A stretch of DNA of 64,000 nt, taken from NCBI GenBank assembly GCA_902621855.1, contig CACNNQ010000002.1, positions 239,984-303,983 on the forward strand. Direction: 5' to 3'. The notes under the pieces were generated by a model. It was not told the DNA's origin, did not search any database, and worked only from the letters and a program-made list of their open reading frames with translations. This document shows positions 11,345 through 20,606 of this stretch, in pieces. A program made the position numbers and the translations under genes. The stretch is from an uncultured Alphaproteobacteria bacterium (GTDB lineage: Bacteria; Pseudomonadota; Alphaproteobacteria; HIMB59; GCA-002718135). The first letter of the stretch is position 1. Each line of letters opens with the position of its first letter.

Positions 11345-12667
11345 ATGGCAATCGAATATTTAAAAAAAGGTTTAGATGAAAAACAAAGAGTTGAAGATAA
11401 TGATAAAGTAAAAAAAATTGTTGAGGAAACATTAAGGAAAATAGAATCAGAAGGTGATAAACATATTAGAGAGTTATCACAAAAATTTGATAACTATTCA
11501 CCAGATAGTTTTCGACTAAGTGAAGATCAAATTAATGAATTGATTGGTGAAGTCTCTGATGATGATAAAGAAGATATTAAATTTGCTCAAAAACAAGTAA
11601 GGTCATTTGCTGAAGCACAATTAAAAACTTTAAATGAATTAGAGGTAGAAACGCATCCTGGTGTTATTCTTGGTCATAAGAATATACCTGTACAAGCAGT
11701 TGGTTGCTATGTACCTGCTGGTAAATTTCCAATGGTAGCTTCTGCACATATGTCTGTTGTTACTGCATCTGTTGCAGGAGTACCAAGAATTGTAGCCACT
11801 ACTCCACCTTTTAAAGGCAAACCAAATCCTGCAGTTGTGACAGCAATGAAAATGGGTGGTGCTCATGAAATATATGTTTTAGGAGGAATGCAAGGAGTTG
11901 GTGCAATGGCAATTGGCACGGAAACTATTAAAGCTGTTGATATGCTTGTTGGACCTGGTAATGCATTTGTTGCTGAAGCAAAAAGACAACTATTTGGCAA
12001 AGTTGGTATTGATTTATTTGCTGGTCCAACTGAAACAATGGTTATTGCAGATGAGACAGTTGATGGTGAAATATGTGCAACAGACTTACTAGGACAAGCA
12101 GAACATGGATATAATTCTCCCGCTGTGATGATAACAAACTCTAGAAAACTTGCAGAAGAGACATTGAAAGAAATTGATAGAATTTTAGAAATCTTACCTA
12201 CTAAAGAAACAGCAAGTACAAGTTGGAGAGATTATGGAGAAATGATTTTATGTGATACCTATGAGGAGATGTTATCTAAAGCAAATGAAATAGCTTCAGA
12301 GCATGTACAAGTTATGACAAAAAAAGATGATTGGTTTTTAGAAAATATGACATCTTATGGAGCTCTATTTTTGGGTGCTAGAACGAATGTTGCAAATGGT
12401 GATAAGGTAATAGGCACTAACCATACTTTACCAACAAAAAAAGCTGGTAGATACACTGGGGGTCTTTGGGTAGGTAAATATATTAAAACACATACATATC
12501 AAAAAATCACAACTGATGAGGCAGCAACAAAAATTGGTGAATATGGATCCAGGTTATCATACCTTGAAGGCTTTATTGGTCATGCTGAGCAATGTAATGT
12601 CAGAGTAAGAAGGTATGGTGGAGTTAACGTTGAGTATGGGAAACCCGCAAAAAAATTAAAAAATTAA
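11345..12667 (+). CDS. Histidinol dehydrogenase (HisD) family NAD-dependent dehydrogenase, paralogue of uncertain substrate
   Basis: 440 aa. HisD-family motifs LLGQAEHG, GTNHTLPT and EGFIGHAEQ. Starts 2 nt after the type B2 gene. No other his genes in the window. Confidence 0.8.
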   Translation: MAIEYLKKGLDEKQRVEDNDKVKKIVEETLRKIESEGDKHIRELSQKFDNYSPDSFRLSEDQINELIGEVSDDDKEDIKFAQKQVRSFAEAQLKTLNELEVETHPGVILGHKNIPVQAVGCYVPAGKFPMVASAHMSVVTASVAGVPRIVATTPPFKGKPNPAVVTAMKMGGAHEIYVLGGMQGVGAMAIGTETIKAVDMLVGPGNAFVAEAKRQLFGKVGIDLFAGPTETMVIADETVDGEICATDLLGQAEHGYNSPAVMITNSRKLAEETLKEIDRILEILPTKETASTSWRDYGEMILCDTYEEMLSKANEIASEHVQVMTKKDDWFLENMTSYGALFLGARTNVANGDKVIGTNHTLPTKKAGRYTGGLWVGKYIKTHTYQKITTDEAATKIGEYGSRLSYLEGFIGHAEQCNVRVRRYGGVNVEYGKPAKKLKN

Positions 12668-14535
12668 ATTTTGTTATTCTTTTTTAAAAAAGTTAAAACT
12701 TCATCTGCTAATTCTTCCGCCTTTTTCATTTGAGTATTCAGAATTATTTCAGGTGATTCAGGTTTTTCATAAATAGAATCAATTCCTGTAAAATTTTTTA
12801 ATTTACCTGCTCTAGCTTTCTTATATAAACCTTTCGGATCTCGCTTTTCACATTCTTCAATTGTTGTGTTGATAAAAATTTCAATAAACTCATCTTTTTC
12901 TACTAAATCACGGGCCATTTTTCTTTCTGATTTAAATGGTGAAATGAAAGATACAATTGTGATTAATCCTGCATCAATCATTAATCTAGATACTTCTGAA
13001 ATCCGTCTAATATTTTCAACACGATCTGTATCGGTGAAACCAAGATCTTTATTTAATCCGTGTCTTATATTGTCCCCGTCTAATAAATAGGTATGCTTTC
13101 CAATTTGATGAAGTTTTTGTTCAATTATATTTGCAATTGTAGATTTTCCTGAACCTGATAACCCAGTAAACCATAAAATACACGGACTTTGACCACTGAT
13201 AGAAGATCTTAATTTTTTATTTATAGACATCTTTTGCCAAGCAATATTTGAAGCTCTTCTTAATTCATGATCAATTACACCTGCTCCCAAAGTCTGTTTA
13301 GTAAATTGATCTATTATTACAAAACTACCTAATCTTTTATTTTTTTGATAAGAATTAAATACAATATTCTTATTTAAAGCTACTTTGCAGTAAGCTATTT
13401 CATTTAAATTTAATTCTTTCGAAGCTAATTTATCAAATGAATTTACGTTTATTTTATGAACAAGATCAGTAATTTTACCAATTGTTTGTGAATTGATAAA
13501 TCTAAAAATATAATTTCTTTCAGGTAACATTTTTTCTTTACTCATCCAAATTATATGAGAAGCAAATTGATCTGAGGTAAATAAATTATCTTTGTTAGTA
13601 GAACATATTAAGTTGCCTCTTGAAATATCAACCTCTTTACTCAATGTAAGGGTAACTGCTTGGTCTTTAAACGCAACTTCTTTTTGACCACTAGGAGTAA
13701 GTATTTTTTTTATTATGTTTTTTTCCCTACTAGGTAATATAAAAATTTCATCATCAATATTTATTTTTCCTGAAGAAATTGTGCCGCTATATCCTCTAAA
13801 ATTTGATGATAATCTATTGACCCATTGTACTGGCATAGAAAAAAAATCATCTTCTGGTTCAATCAAGCTTATATCCTCAAGTTCTTCAATTAAAGTTTTA
13901 CCATTATACCAAGGTATATTTTTATTTTTAGTAAATACATTTTCTCCATGTAAAGCTGAAATTGGAATAAATTTTTCTATTTTAAATTTAAATTGATTTG
14001 ATATTTCTGTGAAAGATTTGACTATTTCTTCAAATTTATTTTGATTAAAATCAATTAAATCCATTTTATTTACAGTTACAATAATATTTTCAATTCCAAG
14101 TAAAGATAAGATAAATGTGTGTCTCTTTGTTTGATCTAATATCCCTTTTGAAGCATCTATTAATATAATTGCTACATCAGAATTTGATGCTCCTGTAGCC
14201 ATATTTCTTGTGTACTCTTCGTGACCGGGCGTGTCGGCAAGAATAAACTTGCATTTTTCAGTCTCAAAATAACGATAGGCGACATCAATAGTTATTCCCT
14301 GTTCTCTTTCAGCTTGAAGTCCATCAATTAATAAAGCAAGATCAACTTTTTTTCCTTGTGTTCCATACTTCTCACTTTCTTTCTGAGTTTGGGTCAGCTG
14401 ATCACTATAAATATTTTTAGAATCATACATAAGCCTACCAAGTAATGTAGATTTACCATCATCAACTGATCCACATGTTAATATTTTCAATTGTTTTTTG
14501 TTATTTTGTTTTTCGAAAAAAGCTTTCAAATCCAT
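12664..14535 (-). CDS. cysNC: Bifunctional sulfate adenylyltransferase subunit 1 (GTPase) / adenylylsulfate (APS) kinase
   Basis: 623 aa. N-terminal GTPase (GSVDDGKSTLLGRL, DTPGHEEY, NKMD). C-terminal APS kinase P-loop (WFTGLSGSGKSTIA). Confidence 0.9.
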   Translation of the reverse strand: MDLKAFFEKQNNKKQLKILTCGSVDDGKSTLLGRLMYDSKNIYSDQLTQTQKESEKYGTQGKKVDLALLIDGLQAEREQGITIDVAYRYFETEKCKFILADTPGHEEYTRNMATGASNSDVAIILIDASKGILDQTKRHTFILSLLGIENIIVTVNKMDLIDFNQNKFEEIVKSFTEISNQFKFKIEKFIPISALHGENVFTKNKNIPWYNGKTLIEELEDISLIEPEDDFFSMPVQWVNRLSSNFRGYSGTISSGKINIDDEIFILPSREKNIIKKILTPSGQKEVAFKDQAVTLTLSKEVDISRGNLICSTNKDNLFTSDQFASHIIWMSKEKMLPERNYIFRFINSQTIGKITDLVHKINVNSFDKLASKELNLNEIAYCKVALNKNIVFNSYQKNKRLGSFVIIDQFTKQTLGAGVIDHELRRASNIAWQKMSINKKLRSSISGQSPCILWFTGLSGSGKSTIANIIEQKLHQIGKHTYLLDGDNIRHGLNKDLGFTDTDRVENIRRISEVSRLMIDAGLITIVSFISPFKSERKMARDLVEKDEFIEIFINTTIEECEKRDPKGLYKKARAGKLKNFTGIDSIYEKPESPEIILNTQMKKAEELADEVLTFLKKNNKI

Positions 14536-15434
14536 TAGAAATATCCTTCTTGTTTTTTTATTTCCATAGATCCAATTTGATCACTGTCAATCAATCTCCC
14601 TTGTCTTTCTGAGTATTTAGTTTCTAAAAGTTCAATAATGATTTCTTCTACATTAGTAGCTGCGGACTCCATAGCTGCTGTTAATGGATAACAACCTAAT
14701 GTTCTAAATCTCACATTTTTTTGTTCTATTTTTTCATTCTGTTTGATTTCTAATCGATCATCATCAACCATAATCATCATGCCATCACGTTTGATAATTG
14801 GTCGAGTTTTAGCTAAATACAAAGGAACTATTGGTATTTTTTCTTGATAAATATATTGCCATATATCTAGCTCTGTCCAGTTCGATAGTGGAAATACCCT
14901 AACACTTTCATCAGTATTAATTTTTGTGTTAAATAAATTCCAAAGCTCTGGTTTTTGATTTTTAGGATCCCATCGATGATTTTTATCACGAAAAGAAAAA
15001 ATTCTTTCTTTTGCTCTTGATTTTTCTTCATCTCGCCGTGCACCTCCAAATGCAGCATCAAATTTATATTTATCTAAAGCTTGTTTTAAAGCTTGTGTTT
15101 TCATTATATCTGTATGAATTTTTGAACCATTTTTAATTGGACTAATTTTATTACGTATTCCATCTTGATTTATATGCACTATTAAATCAAGGTTATATGT
15201 CTTAGCAATTTGATCTCTAAATAAAATCATTTCTTTAAATTTCCAAGTTGTGTCTATGTGCATTATTTTAAAAGGTATATTATTTGGTGCAAAAGCTTTT
15301 AGAGCTAGATGCAACATTACAGAAGAATCTTTACCAATTGAATAAAGCATTACTGGATTATCAAATTCAGCAACAACTTCTCTAATGATATGAATGCTTT
15401 CTGATTCTAACTTATCTATATGTGATAGTTTCAT
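14535..15434 (-). CDS. cysD: Sulfate adenylyltransferase subunit 2
   Basis: 299 aa. PAPS-reductase-fold N-terminus [34 protein letters not shown]. Overlaps the cysNC start by 1 nt. Confidence 0.9.
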
Positions 15435-15435
15435 G

Positions 15436-16239
15436 CTAATCTATTTGAGATATATTTCCATAAGCTATAAAATAGGGATTTAAAATATTTTCTTTAGTAT
15501 TGTAAAGAATTTCATCATTATCTATAGATCTTAATTTTCCCCCAGCTTCTTGTAAAATGATATGACCAGCTGCAATGTCCCATTCGGAAGTTGGTCCAAA
15601 TCTAGGATAAATATCTGCTGTTCCTTCTGCCAAATGACAAAACTTAAGTGAGCTTCCAATTTTAATTAATTCAAAATTGGTAAATTTACTTTTAACCCAT
15701 TCGTTGAATTCCGTATTTGAATGTGATCTACTACCAATTATTCTCGTAATTGAATAACTTTTTTTGACTACATTAATCTTTTCTAAATTATTTAGAGAGC
15801 TTAAATTTCTATTAGTATAAACTTTAAAAGAGCCATAATTTTTGTAGGCATAATACAAAACAGATTTTACTGGAGAATATATGATTCCAAAAACTGGTTT
15901 ATTGTTTTCTATGAGTGAAATATTAATTGTAAATTCACCATTTCTATTTATAAATTCTTTTGTCCCATCTAGTGGATCAATAAGCCAATATTTTTTCCAT
16001 TTTTTTCGAATGCCCCATGAAACTAGAGATTCTTCGCTCAATATAGGTATATTTGGTTCAAGAATTTTTAATCTAGTAACAATTAATTCATTAGAATTTA
16101 TATCAGCCTCAGTAATTGGTGAACTATCTTCTTTAGTATCTACAGTGAAACCTTTATCATAAATTTTCATAATTTCTTTTCCTGAATCAATAGCTATATT
16201 CAAAAGTTCTAGAATTACTTGGTTGTTATTTAATTCCAT
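15436..16239 (-). CDS. cysQ: 3'(2'),5'-bisphosphate nucleotidase (inositol monophosphatase family)
   Basis: 267 aa with [12 protein letters not shown] and WDIAAGH motifs. Lies in an operon with cysD and cysNC. Confidence 0.8.
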
Positions 16240-16246
16240 TTTTTAT

Positions 16247-17158
16247 TCAAATTAGAATATAATAAATATAAGAAATGTATAAAATGAAACCAACACAACC
16301 ATATGCTCTTCCTATTTTTTTAGCAAAAAACATAAAGGCTAAAATAATAAAAGTTATAAATAGCATAAAAATTAAATCTTGTTTTGCTAAAACATTTGGC
16401 ATTTCAAATGTACCAAAAAAAGAACTAATACCTAAGACTCCTAGTACATTATAAATATTCGATCCTAGTATATTTCCAAGAGCGAAATCTACCTTTTTCT
16501 TAAGTGCAGATATCACGCCTACTACTAATTCTGGAAGTGATGTACCTAATGCAATTATTGATAATCCAATTACTGTTTCTGAAACATTAAAATTGGAAGC
16601 AATATTTATTGAAGAACTTATTAGAAGATCTGAACCATATATTAAAAATATAACTCCTATTATAATTAAAAATACTGATAAAAATATGGAGTATTCACTT
16701 TTATTTATTTCTTCTAGATTTAAAGACTTTTTTTTCACTTGTGTATACATTATGAATGTCAATAAAATGACTGAGAATATTCCAAAAATAAAATTAAAAT
16801 ATAAAAAATTCATAAGAATAAGAACCAGTCCCAAAGCAATATTTATAAGAGCTTGATTGATTTGGTTTTTAGTAATGTTGGATATTGGCAAAATTATTGT
16901 AGTTGCTGCCATAACCAATATTAAGTTAGCGATGTTACTTCCAACTACTGCTCCAAGAGCTAAATCTGCATGATTGTTTAGAACTGCATTTATACTACTT
17001 GCTAATTCAGGAAGTGAGGTTCCACCAGCTACTATGACTACTCCTATTGCAAAAAGAGATATATTTAATTTACGACCAAAACTAACTGATCCTCTTATAA
17101 CAATCTCAGCTCCCAGAACTAGAATAGACAGTCCAATAATTAAAAAAAATATATCCAC
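16247..17158 (-). CDS. Ca2+/cation antiporter (CaCA) family membrane protein, YrbG-like
   Basis: 303 aa, about 10 TM segments, with two alpha-repeats GGTSLPELASSI and LGTSLPELVVGV. Confidence 0.8.
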   Translation of the reverse strand: MDIFFLIIGLSILVLGAEIVIRGSVSFGRKLNISLFAIGVVIVAGGTSLPELASSINAVLNNHADLALGAVVGSNIANLILVMAATTIILPISNITKNQINQALINIALGLVLILMNFLYFNFIFGIFSVILLTFIMYTQVKKKSLNLEEINKSEYSIFLSVFLIIIGVIFLIYGSDLLISSSINIASNFNVSETVIGLSIIALGTSLPELVVGVISALKKKVDFALGNILGSNIYNVLGVLGISSFFGTFEMPNVLAKQDLIFMLFITFIILAFMFFAKKIGRAYGCVGFILYISYIYYILI

Positions 17159-17226: not shown

Positions 17227-18843
17227 ATGGAAAATAGTGAAAATTTTGACTTTATTATTATAGGAGCTGGAACTGCTGGATGTATATTAGCCAATAGGTT
17301 GTCAAAAGATAAAAATATAAATGTTCTGTTAATTGAAGCAGGTGGGCCAGATCGTAACCCTTGGATACATATACCAGGCGGATATTTCAAAACCATGCAT
17401 AATCCAAAAACAGATTGGTGCTTTAACACAGAAAGTGAAAAATTTTGTAATAACAGAAAAATGCTTTTTCCAAGAGGCAAAACACTTGGTGGGAGCTCAT
17501 CTATTAATGGAATGTTATATATAAGGGGGCATGCAAGTGATTATGATTATTGGCGACAGCTTGGAAATTTTGGGTGGTCTTGGAGCGATGTTCTACCTTA
17601 TTTTAAAAAATCTGAAGATTATGAGTTAGGTGGTAACGAATTTCACGGAGCAGGGGGACCTATAAAGGTTGAACAAATTAAATGTAAATTTAAGGTACTT
17701 GATCTATTTTTAGAAGCGTCGCAAGAATTTGGTTTTAAAAAAACAGATGATTTTAACAATGGCGATAATGAAGGTATTGGATATTTTCCTTATACAACAA
17801 AAAATGGCTTTAGGTGTAGTGCTGCTGTTGGATATTTAAACCCAATTAAAAATAGAAAAAATCTAAAAATTATAACAAATGCACATGTTAAAAAAATTAT
17901 ATTTAAGAATAAAAAAGCAAAAAATGTAAATTTTTTTAAGGATAATATTTCTTATTCTTACTCAGCAAATAAAGAAATAATCTTGAGTGCTGGCTCAATT
18001 GGATCACCTCATATTTTACAAGCTTCAGGAGTAGGTCCAGGGGGGCTTTTAAAATCAAATGGGATAGAGGTTTTAAATAATCTCAATGGCGTGGGTAGTA
18101 ATTTAATAGATCATTTAATGCTCAGGCCTGTTTATAAAATAAAAAATCTTGAAACACTTAATGACATTTATCATAGTCTTCCTAAAAGAATCTTATCCGC
18201 TTTAAATTTTTTAATTTATAGAAAAGGACCTTTAACTGTTGGAGCTAGTTATTTGTGTGGTTTTATTAAAAGTGACTCCTATTTAGAATACCCGAATTTA
18301 CAATTTCATATATCTCCAGCAAGTACTGATCTACTTGGTAAAGCAAAACTCCATAAATTTCCAGCGTTTACTCCAACAATCACAAATATTAAACCAACAA
18401 GTAGAGGTTCTGTTGAATTACAATCTCAAGATACAAGAGTAAATCCAAAAATTAAAATGAATTATTTATCTACTGAAGAAGATAGGGTAATAGCAGCAAA
18501 ATCTATTAGAATTGTTAGAAAAATTATTTTAGATTCCAAAGCATACAAGAAATATGAACCTGAGGAACTAAGACCAGGTATAGAATTTAAAGATGATGAT
18601 TCGTTAGCAAGAGAAGCGGGAAAATTTGCAAATACTATATTTCATCCTGTTGGTACATGTAAAATGGGAATAGATAAAAATGCAGTTGTTGACGAAAAAC
18701 TTAAAGTTATAGGTTTAGAAAATCTAAGAATAGTAGATGCATCAATTATGCCAAGTATTACATCTGGTAATACTAATGCTCCTACAATGATGATTGCTGA
18801 AAAGGCTTCTGATATGATTCTTAAAGAAATATATAATTATTGA
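17227..18843 (+). CDS. GMC family FAD oxidoreductase (choline/alcohol dehydrogenase-like)
   Basis: 538 aa. DFIIIGAGTAGCILANRLS (FAD), GGSSSINGMLYIRG, HPVGTCKMG, and C-terminal GNTNAPTMMIAEKASD. Confidence 0.9.
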   Translation: MENSENFDFIIIGAGTAGCILANRLSKDKNINVLLIEAGGPDRNPWIHIPGGYFKTMHNPKTDWCFNTESEKFCNNRKMLFPRGKTLGGSSSINGMLYIRGHASDYDYWRQLGNFGWSWSDVLPYFKKSEDYELGGNEFHGAGGPIKVEQIKCKFKVLDLFLEASQEFGFKKTDDFNNGDNEGIGYFPYTTKNGFRCSAAVGYLNPIKNRKNLKIITNAHVKKIIFKNKKAKNVNFFKDNISYSYSANKEIILSAGSIGSPHILQASGVGPGGLLKSNGIEVLNNLNGVGSNLIDHLMLRPVYKIKNLETLNDIYHSLPKRILSALNFLIYRKGPLTVGASYLCGFIKSDSYLEYPNLQFHISPASTDLLGKAKLHKFPAFTPTITNIKPTSRGSVELQSQDTRVNPKIKMNYLSTEEDRVIAAKSIRIVRKIILDSKAYKKYEPEELRPGIEFKDDDSLAREAGKFANTIFHPVGTCKMGIDKNAVVDEKLKVIGLENLRIVDASIMPSITSGNTNAPTMMIAEKASDMILKEIYNY

Positions 18844-20606
18844 ACTACAGTATCTTCACGATTAATACCAGCTACCTCCACTGGAGATTTCATTGCATCT
18901 CTTCTGAATGGTTCTCCAAGTTCTTGGTTCAGCATTACTTCTATAAAAGTAGTGGTACCTTGCATTTGTTCTATACATGAGAGCTTAAGCGCATCAGTTA
19001 ACTCTTCTGGAGTATTCACTCTTACTCCCTTAAATCCACAAGCCTCAGCAATTTTTGCATAATTTAATTTAGGATCAAGTTCAGTGCCAACAAAATTATT
19101 ATTATACCAAAGTGTGGTGTTTCTTTTTTCTGCACCCCATTGATAATTTCTAAAAATAATCATAGTTATGTTTGGCCACCCATCTCTATTACAAGATGTC
19201 ATTTCACTCATACTAATTCCAAATGCACCATCTCCCGCGAATCCTACTACAGGAGTGTCAGGACAACCGATTTTTGCTCCAATAACTGAAGGAAAACCAT
19301 ATCCACAAGGTCCAAATAAACCAGGAGCTAAGTATTTTCTTCCATTTTCAAATGAAGGATATGCGTTTCCAATTGCGCAATTATTTCCAATATCACTTGA
19401 TATAATTGCTTCTTCAGGTAAACCAGCCTGAATAGCTCTCCATGCCATTCGCGGAGACATTTTTTCAGGCTCTCTATCTCTTGAATCTTTATTCCAAGAT
19501 GTTCCAGGGTCATCATCTTCATGATCCAAGCTAGTTAGTGTCTGCAACCAAGATGATTTAGTTTTATGTATTAATTCTTCTCTTTCTTTTCTATTATTGT
19601 TTCCTGCGTCTCTTGAAAGTTTATCAAATATTTGCTGAGCAACAAGTTTTGCATCGCCACATATACCAATACTTATTTTTTTTGTTAAACCAATTCGATC
19701 AGAATTAATATCAACTTGAATTACTTGAGCTTTTTTAGGCCAATAGTCAATGCCATAACCAGGAAGTGTTGAAAAGGGATTTAGTCTTGTACCTAGTGCT
19801 AAAACAACATCAGCTTTTGATATAATTTCCATAGCAGCCTTTGATCCATTATAGCCAAGTGGTCCAACAGCGAGTGGATGTTTACCAGGAAAACTATCAT
19901 TGTGTTGGTAACCGCAAGCTACGGGTGCACTTAATTTTTCAGCAAGGTTTTTACAATCGTTTATAGCATCTGATAAAATTACTCCTGCGCCTGACAAAAT
20001 TACTGGAAATTTAGCATTAGAAAGCAATGATGCTGCTTTTTTGATAGCATCGGATCCTCCAGATGGTTTTTCAAATGTGATTATTGGTGGAATTTCAATA
20101 TCAATTACCTGTGTCCAAAAATCTCTTGGAATATTCAATTGCGCAGGAGCCGATCCTTTTATTGCTTTAGAAATTACTCTATTTAAAACCTCTGCAACTC
20201 TTGAAGGGTCTCGCACCTCCTCTTGATAACAAACCATATCTTTAAATAAATTCATTTGCTCTACTTCTTGAAAACCACCCTGACCCATTGTTTTATTGGC
20301 AGCTTGAGGAGTAACAAGCAACATTGGAGTATGATTCCAATATGCTGTTTTAATAGGAGTTACTAAACCTGTGATACCCGGTCCATTTTGGGCAATACAC
20401 ATTGCGATTTTGCCAGTTGACCTTGTATATCCGTCAGCCATTATCCCACCATTAGACTCGTGCGCTACATCCCAAAATGTAATGCCGGCCTTAGGGAATA
20501 AGTCTGAGATAGGCATAAATGCAGACCCAATGATACCAAAGGCATTTTGTATACCATGCTTTTGTAATACTTTAACAAAAGCTTCTTCAGTTGTCATTTT
20601 TGCCAT
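18837..20606 (-). CDS. xsc: Sulfoacetaldehyde acetyltransferase (ThDP-dependent)
   Basis: 589 aa. The N-terminus MAKMTTEEAFVKVLQKHGIQNAFGIIGSAFMPISDLFPKAGITFWD... and TPQAANKTMGQGGFQEVEQM match my recollection of Xsc sequences. A ThDP motif GDGAF is present. Confidence 0.8.
   Translation of the reverse strand: MAKMTTEEAFVKVLQKHGIQNAFGIIGSAFMPISDLFPKAGITFWDVAHESNGGIMADGYTRSTGKIAMCIAQNGPGITGLVTPIKTAYWNHTPMLLVTPQAANKTMGQGGFQEVEQMNLFKDMVCYQEEVRDPSRVAEVLNRVISKAIKGSAPAQLNIPRDFWTQVIDIEIPPIITFEKPSGGSDAIKKAASLLSNAKFPVILSGAGVILSDAINDCKNLAEKLSAPVACGYQHNDSFPGKHPLAVGPLGYNGSKAAMEIISKADVVLALGTRLNPFSTLPGYGIDYWPKKAQVIQVDINSDRIGLTKKISIGICGDAKLVAQQIFDKLSRDAGNNNRKEREELIHKTKSSWLQTLTSLDHEDDDPGTSWNKDSRDREPEKMSPRMAWRAIQAGLPEEAIISSDIGNNCAIGNAYPSFENGRKYLAPGLFGPCGYGFPSVIGAKIGCPDTPVVGFAGDGAFGISMSEMTSCNRDGWPNITMIIFRNYQWGAEKRNTTLWYNNNFVGTELDPKLNYAKIAEACGFKGVRVNTPEELTDALKLSCIEQMQGTTTFIEVMLNQELGEPFRRDAMKSPVEVAGINREDTVVQ

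Follow-up and report, generated by a model that had tools for sequence, protein, structure and literature searches.

Why does a lineage that, like SAR11, cannot assimilate sulfate yet spend ATP and GTP on activating it? The question is raised by a stretch of 64,000 nucleotides from an uncultured alphaproteobacterium (contig CACNNQ010000002.1, positions 239,984 to 303,983; the whole stretch is referred to below as the window). On its minus strand lies a run of four genes, CaCA, cysQ, cysD and cysNC, which encode a cation antiporter, enzymes that make 3'-phosphoadenosine 5'-phosphosulfate (PAPS) and an enzyme that removes 3'-phosphoadenosine 5'-phosphate (PAP). The bacterium is one of the HIMB59/AEGEAN-169 group, which is abundant in oligotrophic surface oceans. 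A preliminary description of the window suggested that the PAPS may serve sulfotransferases and not cysteine synthesis, and the evidence assembled here supports that view: by exclusion and from gene content, the PAPS is probably made for sulfation rather than for assimilation. The most interesting property of the operon is, however, a different one, namely that cysD-cysNC alternates at a single slot with an uncharacterised pair of very small genes, which will be called the mini pair.

The identities first given to the four tightly packed genes are borne out by family scores above the respective cut-offs and by intact motifs. CysNC scores 898 bits against the bifunctional NCBIfam model NF004035 (cut-off 715), with PF01583 covering residues 451-599. 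Its CysN part has the G1 (GSVDDGKST), G3 (DTPGH) and G4 (NKMD) elements, and its CysC part has the P-loop GLSGSGKST together with DGDNIR and FISP. CysD scores 511 bits against NF009214 (cut-off 413) and carries the PP-loop SIGKDS at residue 32. CysQ, with 288 bits against TIGR01331 (cut-off 229) and 253 against the E. coli-type model NF008182, under the cut-off of 379, contains the metal-site motifs DPLDGT and WDIAAG of the inositol-monophosphatase type. The antiporter had been described as YrbG-like, and of this the family assignment stands: it scores 195 bits against TIGR00367 (cut-off 180), is matched by PF01699 in two stretches and has two alpha-repeats, each with GTSLPE. Against the YrbG equivalog NF008005, however, it scores 145 where 432 are needed, and it is therefore a member of the CaCA family and not a YrbG orthologue. 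The genes are spaced by gaps of 7 nucleotides (CaCA/cysQ) and 1 nucleotide (cysQ/cysD) and by a 1-nucleotide overlap (cysD/cysNC), and all four would probably be transcribed as one unit.

The chemistry expected of these enzymes is well established. CysD and the CysN GTPase form adenosine 5'-phosphosulfate (APS) from sulfate and ATP at the expense of GTP, which is hydrolysed to drive the reaction. The fused CysC domain then adds a phosphate group to APS, giving PAPS, and CysQ hydrolyses the PAP that sulfotransfer leaves behind, with AMP as the product. The preliminary description had found no gene for sulfate reduction nearby, and whole-genome six-frame searches (assembly of 1.48 Mb in 21 contigs, 88.5% complete) extend this from the window to the genome. 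No cysH was found, PF01507 matching cysD alone; the sulfite/nitrite reductase domain (NIR_SIR, PF01077) has no match at all; and Sat-type ATP sulfurylase, aprA and aprB are likewise without a match (TIGR02061, PF01747, PF12139). One SulP-family transporter, the only class of sulfate importer searched for, is encoded on a different contig from the operon and is a candidate for sulfate uptake. A source of reduced sulfur is indicated by dmdA, the gene for dimethylsulfoniopropionate demethylase.

The same picture holds across the order, of which 151 genomes from two families were surveyed (22 at a completeness of at least 90% and one, from the sister family, closed at 1,410,127 bp). NIR_SIR was found in 0 of the 151, and so in none of the 22 most complete, and there was no cysH-type match, every strong match to PF01507 being CysD. 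In 14 control genomes the same NIR_SIR and PF01507 searches were positive in 11 and 14 cases, respectively. Assimilation is thus excluded by the whole clade and not merely by one incomplete assembly, and with no APS or PAPS reductase and no sulfite reductase in genome or order, the PAPS cannot feed cysteine synthesis. Genes for CysD and a fused CysNC are found in 34 of the 70 genomes of the genus to which this genome belongs (itself counted) and in 56 of the 71 from the sister family; the cultured strain HIMB59 is of the cysDNC type. The organism itself, which had been discussed in the context of SAR11 and the Pelagibacterales, belongs to the HIMB59/AEGEAN-169 order. This is the former SAR11 subclade V, now usually placed outside the Pelagibacterales, so that it is no member of the Pelagibacterales in the strict sense (PMC10308909). 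The main genomic study of the clade consulted here makes no mention of sulfur (PMC10308909), and our literature search found no paper on cysDNC in HIMB59-group genomes.

Candidate consumers of PAPS are present. The preliminary description had pointed to the rest of the genome as the place to look for cysH, sulfite reductase, sat and aprBA on the one hand and for sulfotransferases on the other; none of the former were found, whereas four genes with sulfotransferase domains were, two of the Sulfotransfer_1 family, one of Sulfotransfer_5 and one in which TPR units accompany Sulfotransfer_3. All four products keep motifs resembling the 5'-PSB and 3'-PB loops, which bind the 5'-phosphosulfate and the 3'-phosphate in PAPS-dependent enzymes, and the TPR-Sulfotransfer_3 protein bears a weak resemblance to NoeE (NCBIfam). 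PAPS from the operon would pass to these four enzymes and be used to sulfate small molecules or surface polymers, as in the NodPQ and RaxPQ systems discussed below.

Several observations weigh against sulfation as the fate of the PAPS. No sulfotransferase gene adjoins the operon, those of this genome being located on different contigs or at a distance of about 185 kb, and none stands beside cysDNC in the 10 relatives examined. NCBIfam holds no equivalog for any of the four, and they have no characterised relatives there. Sulfotransfer_1 genes occur in 125 of the 151 genomes of the order, and across the genus sulfotransferases show no dependence on cysDNC at the level either of families (Sulfotransfer_1 in 32 of 34 genomes with cysDNC and in 26 of 36 without) or of orthologues, since searches of 69 congeners with three of the sulfotransferases found matches in cysDNC-plus and cysDNC-minus genomes alike. 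Five high-quality genomes without cysDNC also lack Sat. Sulfotransferases in genomes without cysDNC can be reconciled with PAPS-dependent sulfation only if the mini pair, a putative PAPS-making module, supplies PAPS as well. Furthermore, PAP also arises from phosphopantetheinyl transfer, so that CysQ by itself is no evidence of PAPS use. The count of promoter and terminator candidates in the AT-rich DNA of the operon equals the shuffled expectation, and the incompleteness of the assembly must be entered on the same side.

Features of the locus and the sulfotransferase genes of the genome. Positions are those of the window; empty cells, no value given.
Feature	Position	Strand	Length (aa)	Remarks
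HisD-family dehydrogenase	11345-12667	plus		PF00815, 444 bits; convergent with cysNC, 4-nucleotide overlap; right border of the variable slot, not in the module
cysNC fusion	12664-14535	minus	623	CysN GTPase, residues 1 to ~430; APS kinase, ~440-623
cysD, ATP sulfurylase small subunit	14535-15434	minus	299
cysQ, 3'(2'),5'-bisphosphate nucleotidase (PAP to AMP)	15436-16239	minus	267	Fixed anchor of the slot
CaCA (YrbG-like) Na+/Ca2+ antiporter	16247-17158	minus	303	First gene of the run
GMC oxidoreductase	17227-18843	plus		PF00732 and PF05199; divergent from CaCA; conserved left neighbour, not in the module
xsc, sulfoacetaldehyde acetyltransferase (sulfite-releasing)	18837-20606	minus		NF005713, 1018 bits; context, not in the module
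Sulfotransfer_1			279	Adjoins the binding-protein gene of a Liv-type ABC importer
Sulfotransfer_1 and Sulfotransfer_5			300 and 237	Side by side, after a class IV aminotransferase
TPR-Sulfotransfer_3 protein			547

The surroundings of the sulfotransferase genes deserve a separate remark. The adjacent Sulfotransfer_5 and Sulfotransfer_1 genes belong to a run on contig C1 of this genome (L009:4146-11954, minus strand, and L009:14248-15369, plus strand), in which the order is class IV aminotransferase, Sulfotransfer_5, Sulfotransfer_1, HpaH-like hydratase, DCC1-like oxidoreductase, PsiE, photolyase-related protein, ABC-2 exporter and PhyH dioxygenase, with dmdA just beside; possibly the run is a gene cluster dedicated to some sulfated metabolite. 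Among congeners, the members of the Sulfotransfer_1 multigene family have diverged to 35-57% identity from species to species, and up to 6 copies per genome are clustered in islands (G073:C52:59409-72823; G147:C1:107613-121498; G127:C27:1353-15392) reminiscent of the hypervariable surface-glycan regions of SAR11.

Comparison of the locus between congeners shows a stable frame, formed on the left by xsc-GMC-CaCA-cysQ and on the right by the HisD-like gene, in which cysD-cysNC is a swappable cassette. In congeners that lack cysDNC, the syntenic locus consists of xsc-GMC-CaCA-cysQ, two small overlapping genes and the HisD-like gene. In one such congener (L036:10979-11780, plus strand), genes of 137 and 131 codons overlap by 8 nucleotides and directly follow cysQ, the corresponding slot in the window being 12664-15434; both cassettes occupy the identical position after cysQ and ahead of the HisD-like gene. 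Neither gene of the mini pair is present in the genome under study. Among the 70 genomes of the genus, 34 have cysDNC, 30 have the mini pair, none has both and six, all of them incomplete, have neither. That 64 of 70 carry one cassette and none carries two argues for selection that keeps exactly one. When cassette type is placed on a tree of the HisD-like gene (50 distinct sequences; a gene tree of the flank and not a species tree), at least four switches are required, two of them forced by well-supported branches, which means that the either/or pattern is not the product of a single inherited event. Relative to this genome, alleles within the genus have 65-78% identity in CysNC and 55-69% in CysQ, as against 90-96% in the flanking HisD-like gene, where the range takes in congeners of both cassette types. 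The segment 12664-16239 is thus far more diverged than the flank at 11345-12667, which suggests that old alleles have been moved by recombination.

What the mini pair does has to be judged from its relatives and its neighbours. The kinase (137 or 164 residues) matches the Pfam APS_kinase family with 30.8 bits (cut-off 21.1), its best relative among solved structures is an APS kinase, and it can be aligned with the CysC domain of the window. The 131-residue protein is a nucleotidyltransferase of the HxGH/ISxTxxR type with weak NMNAT-like matches; its relatives fill at least 8000 database clusters, for which no Pfam domain is recorded, and the few matches named by their source are all 'hypothetical'. 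The gene for it was found in 30 of 69 congeners, and also in 8 of the 10 genomes from other genera of the family, but in 0 of 71 from the sister family. Two genera have the small genes joined into one, which encodes a protein of about 260 residues. A structure model of the 131-residue protein (modest, with a mean predicted local distance difference test score of 68.7) was compared by Foldseek, and a profile search of the PDB was made; both place it at the level of the HxGH superfamily (PPAT, NMNAT, pantothenate synthetase/PanC), where fold matches do not separate an ATP sulfurylase from a nicotinamide mononucleotide (NMN) adenylyltransferase. The two cassettes differ greatly in size, 268 residues in total for the mini pair and 922 for cysDNC, the former having neither a GTPase nor a PP-loop subunit.

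The gene neighbourhood points to APS metabolism. aprB is found in 5 congeners and in 9 of 10 genomes from other genera of the family, and in several of these, including MarineAlpha5_Bin5 and members of the other genera (L039/L097:6066-10610), aprBA sits between cysQ and the mini pair. In the Pelagibacteraceae, all 27 retrieved loci (L103-L129, from single-amplified and metagenome-assembled genomes) have the mini pair convergent with an aprM-like gene, aprB, aprA and an open reading frame of 116 codons. SAR11 has aprBA and is without sat and cysDNCHIJ (PMC5069961), sat having been reported only in strain HTCC9565 (PMC3448164). The cysQ and aprBA contexts fit the mini pair as an APS-forming or APS-cleaving enzyme together with an APS kinase. 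A role as a NadR-like enzyme of nicotinamide adenine dinucleotide (NAD) salvage is disfavoured by the same neighbourhoods and by the exclusivity with cysDNC. We would put at about even chances the proposal that cysD-cysNC and the mini pair are interchangeable PAPS/APS modules, repeatedly swapped at one slot. The 131-residue protein would then be a new minimal ATP sulfurylase, the 'missing sat' beside SAR11 aprBA, and cysDNC would be its conventional GTP-driven replacement, confined to genomes that lack aprBA.

Two further observations concern the composition of the mini-pair loci. Three genomes with the mini pair have, in addition, a separate gene for an APS kinase of canonical type, about 175 residues long (G105:C15:1480-1923, G133:C7:35365-35805 and G165:C7:7904-8344), which raises the question of the role of the miniature kinase there. 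At loci from two other genera of the family (L040:7948-9167 and L041:6035-7214), the 131-residue transferase directly follows cysQ and no miniature kinase is found within the fetched locus.

The antiporter gene is also best understood through cysQ. Its linkage to sulfate activation had been singled out in the preliminary description, and CaCA does adjoin the operon, by way of cysQ; it is, however, not tied to cysD-cysNC, for it stays with cysQ where cysDNC is absent and is missing from the locus in several species that have cysDNC. CaCA and cysQ are adjacent at 34 loci of the mini type and at 4 of the cys type, and the adjacency is lost in several cys-type congeners. In the sister family there is no CaCA at the locus, and cysQ is divergent from cysD-cysNC. 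A function of CaCA as a partner of sulfate activation was accordingly rejected, CaCA tracking cysQ and not cysDNC. In Vibrio vulnificus, PAPS is an intracellular signal that links calcium and sulfur status (PMC6113621). One may speculate that the pairing of CaCA with cysQ reflects the sensitivity of CysQ-family enzymes to metals or a comparable PAPS-calcium signalling.

How do other accounts of the operon fare beside sulfation? It could open an ordinary pathway of assimilatory sulfate reduction, whose second half, cysH and sulfite reductase, would be encoded in the 11% of the genome that is missing from the assembly. Assimilation in enterobacteria does classically begin with CysDNC, and an assembly of 21 contigs leaves room for missing genes, but the blank results throughout the order, the near-complete and closed genomes among them, and the positive controls leave this idea almost no credence; moreover, dmdA points to the use of reduced sulfur and, because alphaproteobacteria usually reduce APS directly, CysC would be unneeded for assimilation. 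The preliminary description had also entertained a role for the sulfurylase in dealing with the sulfite released by Xsc, which would run through APS-based oxidation or detoxification. In its favour, xsc is two genes distant in a conserved neighbourhood, and aprBA stands beside the mini pair in the other genera of the family, the 5 congeners and the 27 Pelagibacteraceae loci, so that sulfite was probably once connected with APS at this node. The present genome nonetheless offers no enzymatic connection between sulfite and APS: besides aprBA and sat, a SorA-type sulfite dehydrogenase was not found, the single Oxidored_molyb match being MsrP with MsrQ adjoining (SoeABC was not searched for), and aprB is absent from all 34 cysDNC-type genomes of the genus and from all 71 of the sister family. 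CysDN, being GTP-coupled, is built to drive APS synthesis rather than APS breakdown, and three TauE/SafE-type exporters encoded in the genome provide an alternative exit for sulfite. A sulfite-handling role is therefore quite improbable.

A different possibility is that APS or PAPS enters a route without recognised sulfotransferases, be it an APS- or PAPS-dependent biosynthesis of a new kind or the use of PAPS and PAP as regulatory metabolites. The separation of the sulfotransferase genes from the operon would fit this, as would the Vibrio vulnificus signal and the Ca2+ antiporter that heads the operon, but CaCA follows cysQ and is absent from the sister-family locus, all four sulfotransferases retain their PAPS-binding motifs and no candidate for an alternative PAPS consumer was identified; we consider such a route unlikely. 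It might finally be supposed that the cassette arrived by recent transfer and is a mostly neutral passenger at a hot spot of recombination, with no fixed role. The contrast in identity between CysNC and the HisD-like flank and the repeated switches on the flank tree are what such a passenger would leave, yet its catalytic motifs are intact, its GC content is that of its surroundings, one cassette and never two is kept in nearly all congeners, and the sister family has the operon almost throughout. We regard neutrality as very improbable. Provision of PAPS for sulfation remains the preferred reading.

On the side of xsc the neighbourhood is conserved too. xsc has about 91% identity and retained synteny across both cassette types, in both of which the order of the GMC gene is syntenic too. 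The GMC oxidoreductase gene and xsc are convergent with a 7-nucleotide overlap and form a syntenic pair in most congeners; in at least two (L047 and L048) GMC is absent between CaCA and xsc. In the sister family (HIMB59 genus; L026:7086-8546, plus strand, and L033, L034 and L035), CysD is extended at its N-terminus by a conserved stretch of about 190 residues, with 52-83% identity between species and no Pfam match, which is absent from the genome under study.

Genomes that can make PAPS but lack sulfite reductase are not confined to this order. In a sample of 396 high-quality alphaproteobacterial species genomes from outside it, 243 encode an APS kinase, and 54 of these 243 (22%) have no NIR_SIR match, so that the configuration is fairly common in the class and cannot be called rare. 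The sample takes in one unpublished genome (G371) in which both features are present, and the count of 54 is unaffected by it.

The expenditure on PAPS would imply that surface glycans, lipids or metabolites of these bacteria carry sulfate esters, which would contribute to the pool of organosulfur in the sea and might influence recognition by phages or grazers. As the cassette alternates with the mini pair, the operon of the window also offers a natural reference, or positive control, for the putative role of that pair as ATP sulfurylase and APS kinase, a role that would bear on how SAR11 disposes of the APS made by AprBA.

Comparison with known systems places the operon as a PAPS supply of the NodPQ/RaxPQ kind with CysQ added. 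In Sinorhizobium (NodP/NodQ) and Xanthomonas oryzae (RaxP/RaxQ), a CysD homologue and a CysN-CysC fusion provide PAPS for the sulfotransferases NodH and RaxST. The architecture is the same here, and sulfotransferases are likewise encoded in the same genome. The hosts of NodPQ and RaxPQ, however, have a full reductive pathway and keep their PAPS genes together with those for the sulfotransferase and its acceptor, whereas in the present genome there is neither a reductive pathway nor such linkage, and cysQ is part of the unit. With CysD, CysN, CysC and CysQ of E. coli the operon shares enzyme families and catalytic motifs; E. coli, by contrast, has CysN and CysC as separate proteins, has cysQ elsewhere and passes its PAPS to CysH and CysIJ, whereas here CysN and CysC are fused, cysQ lies in the operon and CysH and CysIJ are missing. 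Mycobacterium tuberculosis likewise has a fused CysNC along with Stf sulfotransferases, uses PAPS only for sulfated metabolites and clears PAP with CysQ, while mycobacteria reduce APS through CysH for cysteine. The fused CysNC and the CysQ are alike in the two cases, and the HIMB59 lineage differs in being without reduction by CysH.

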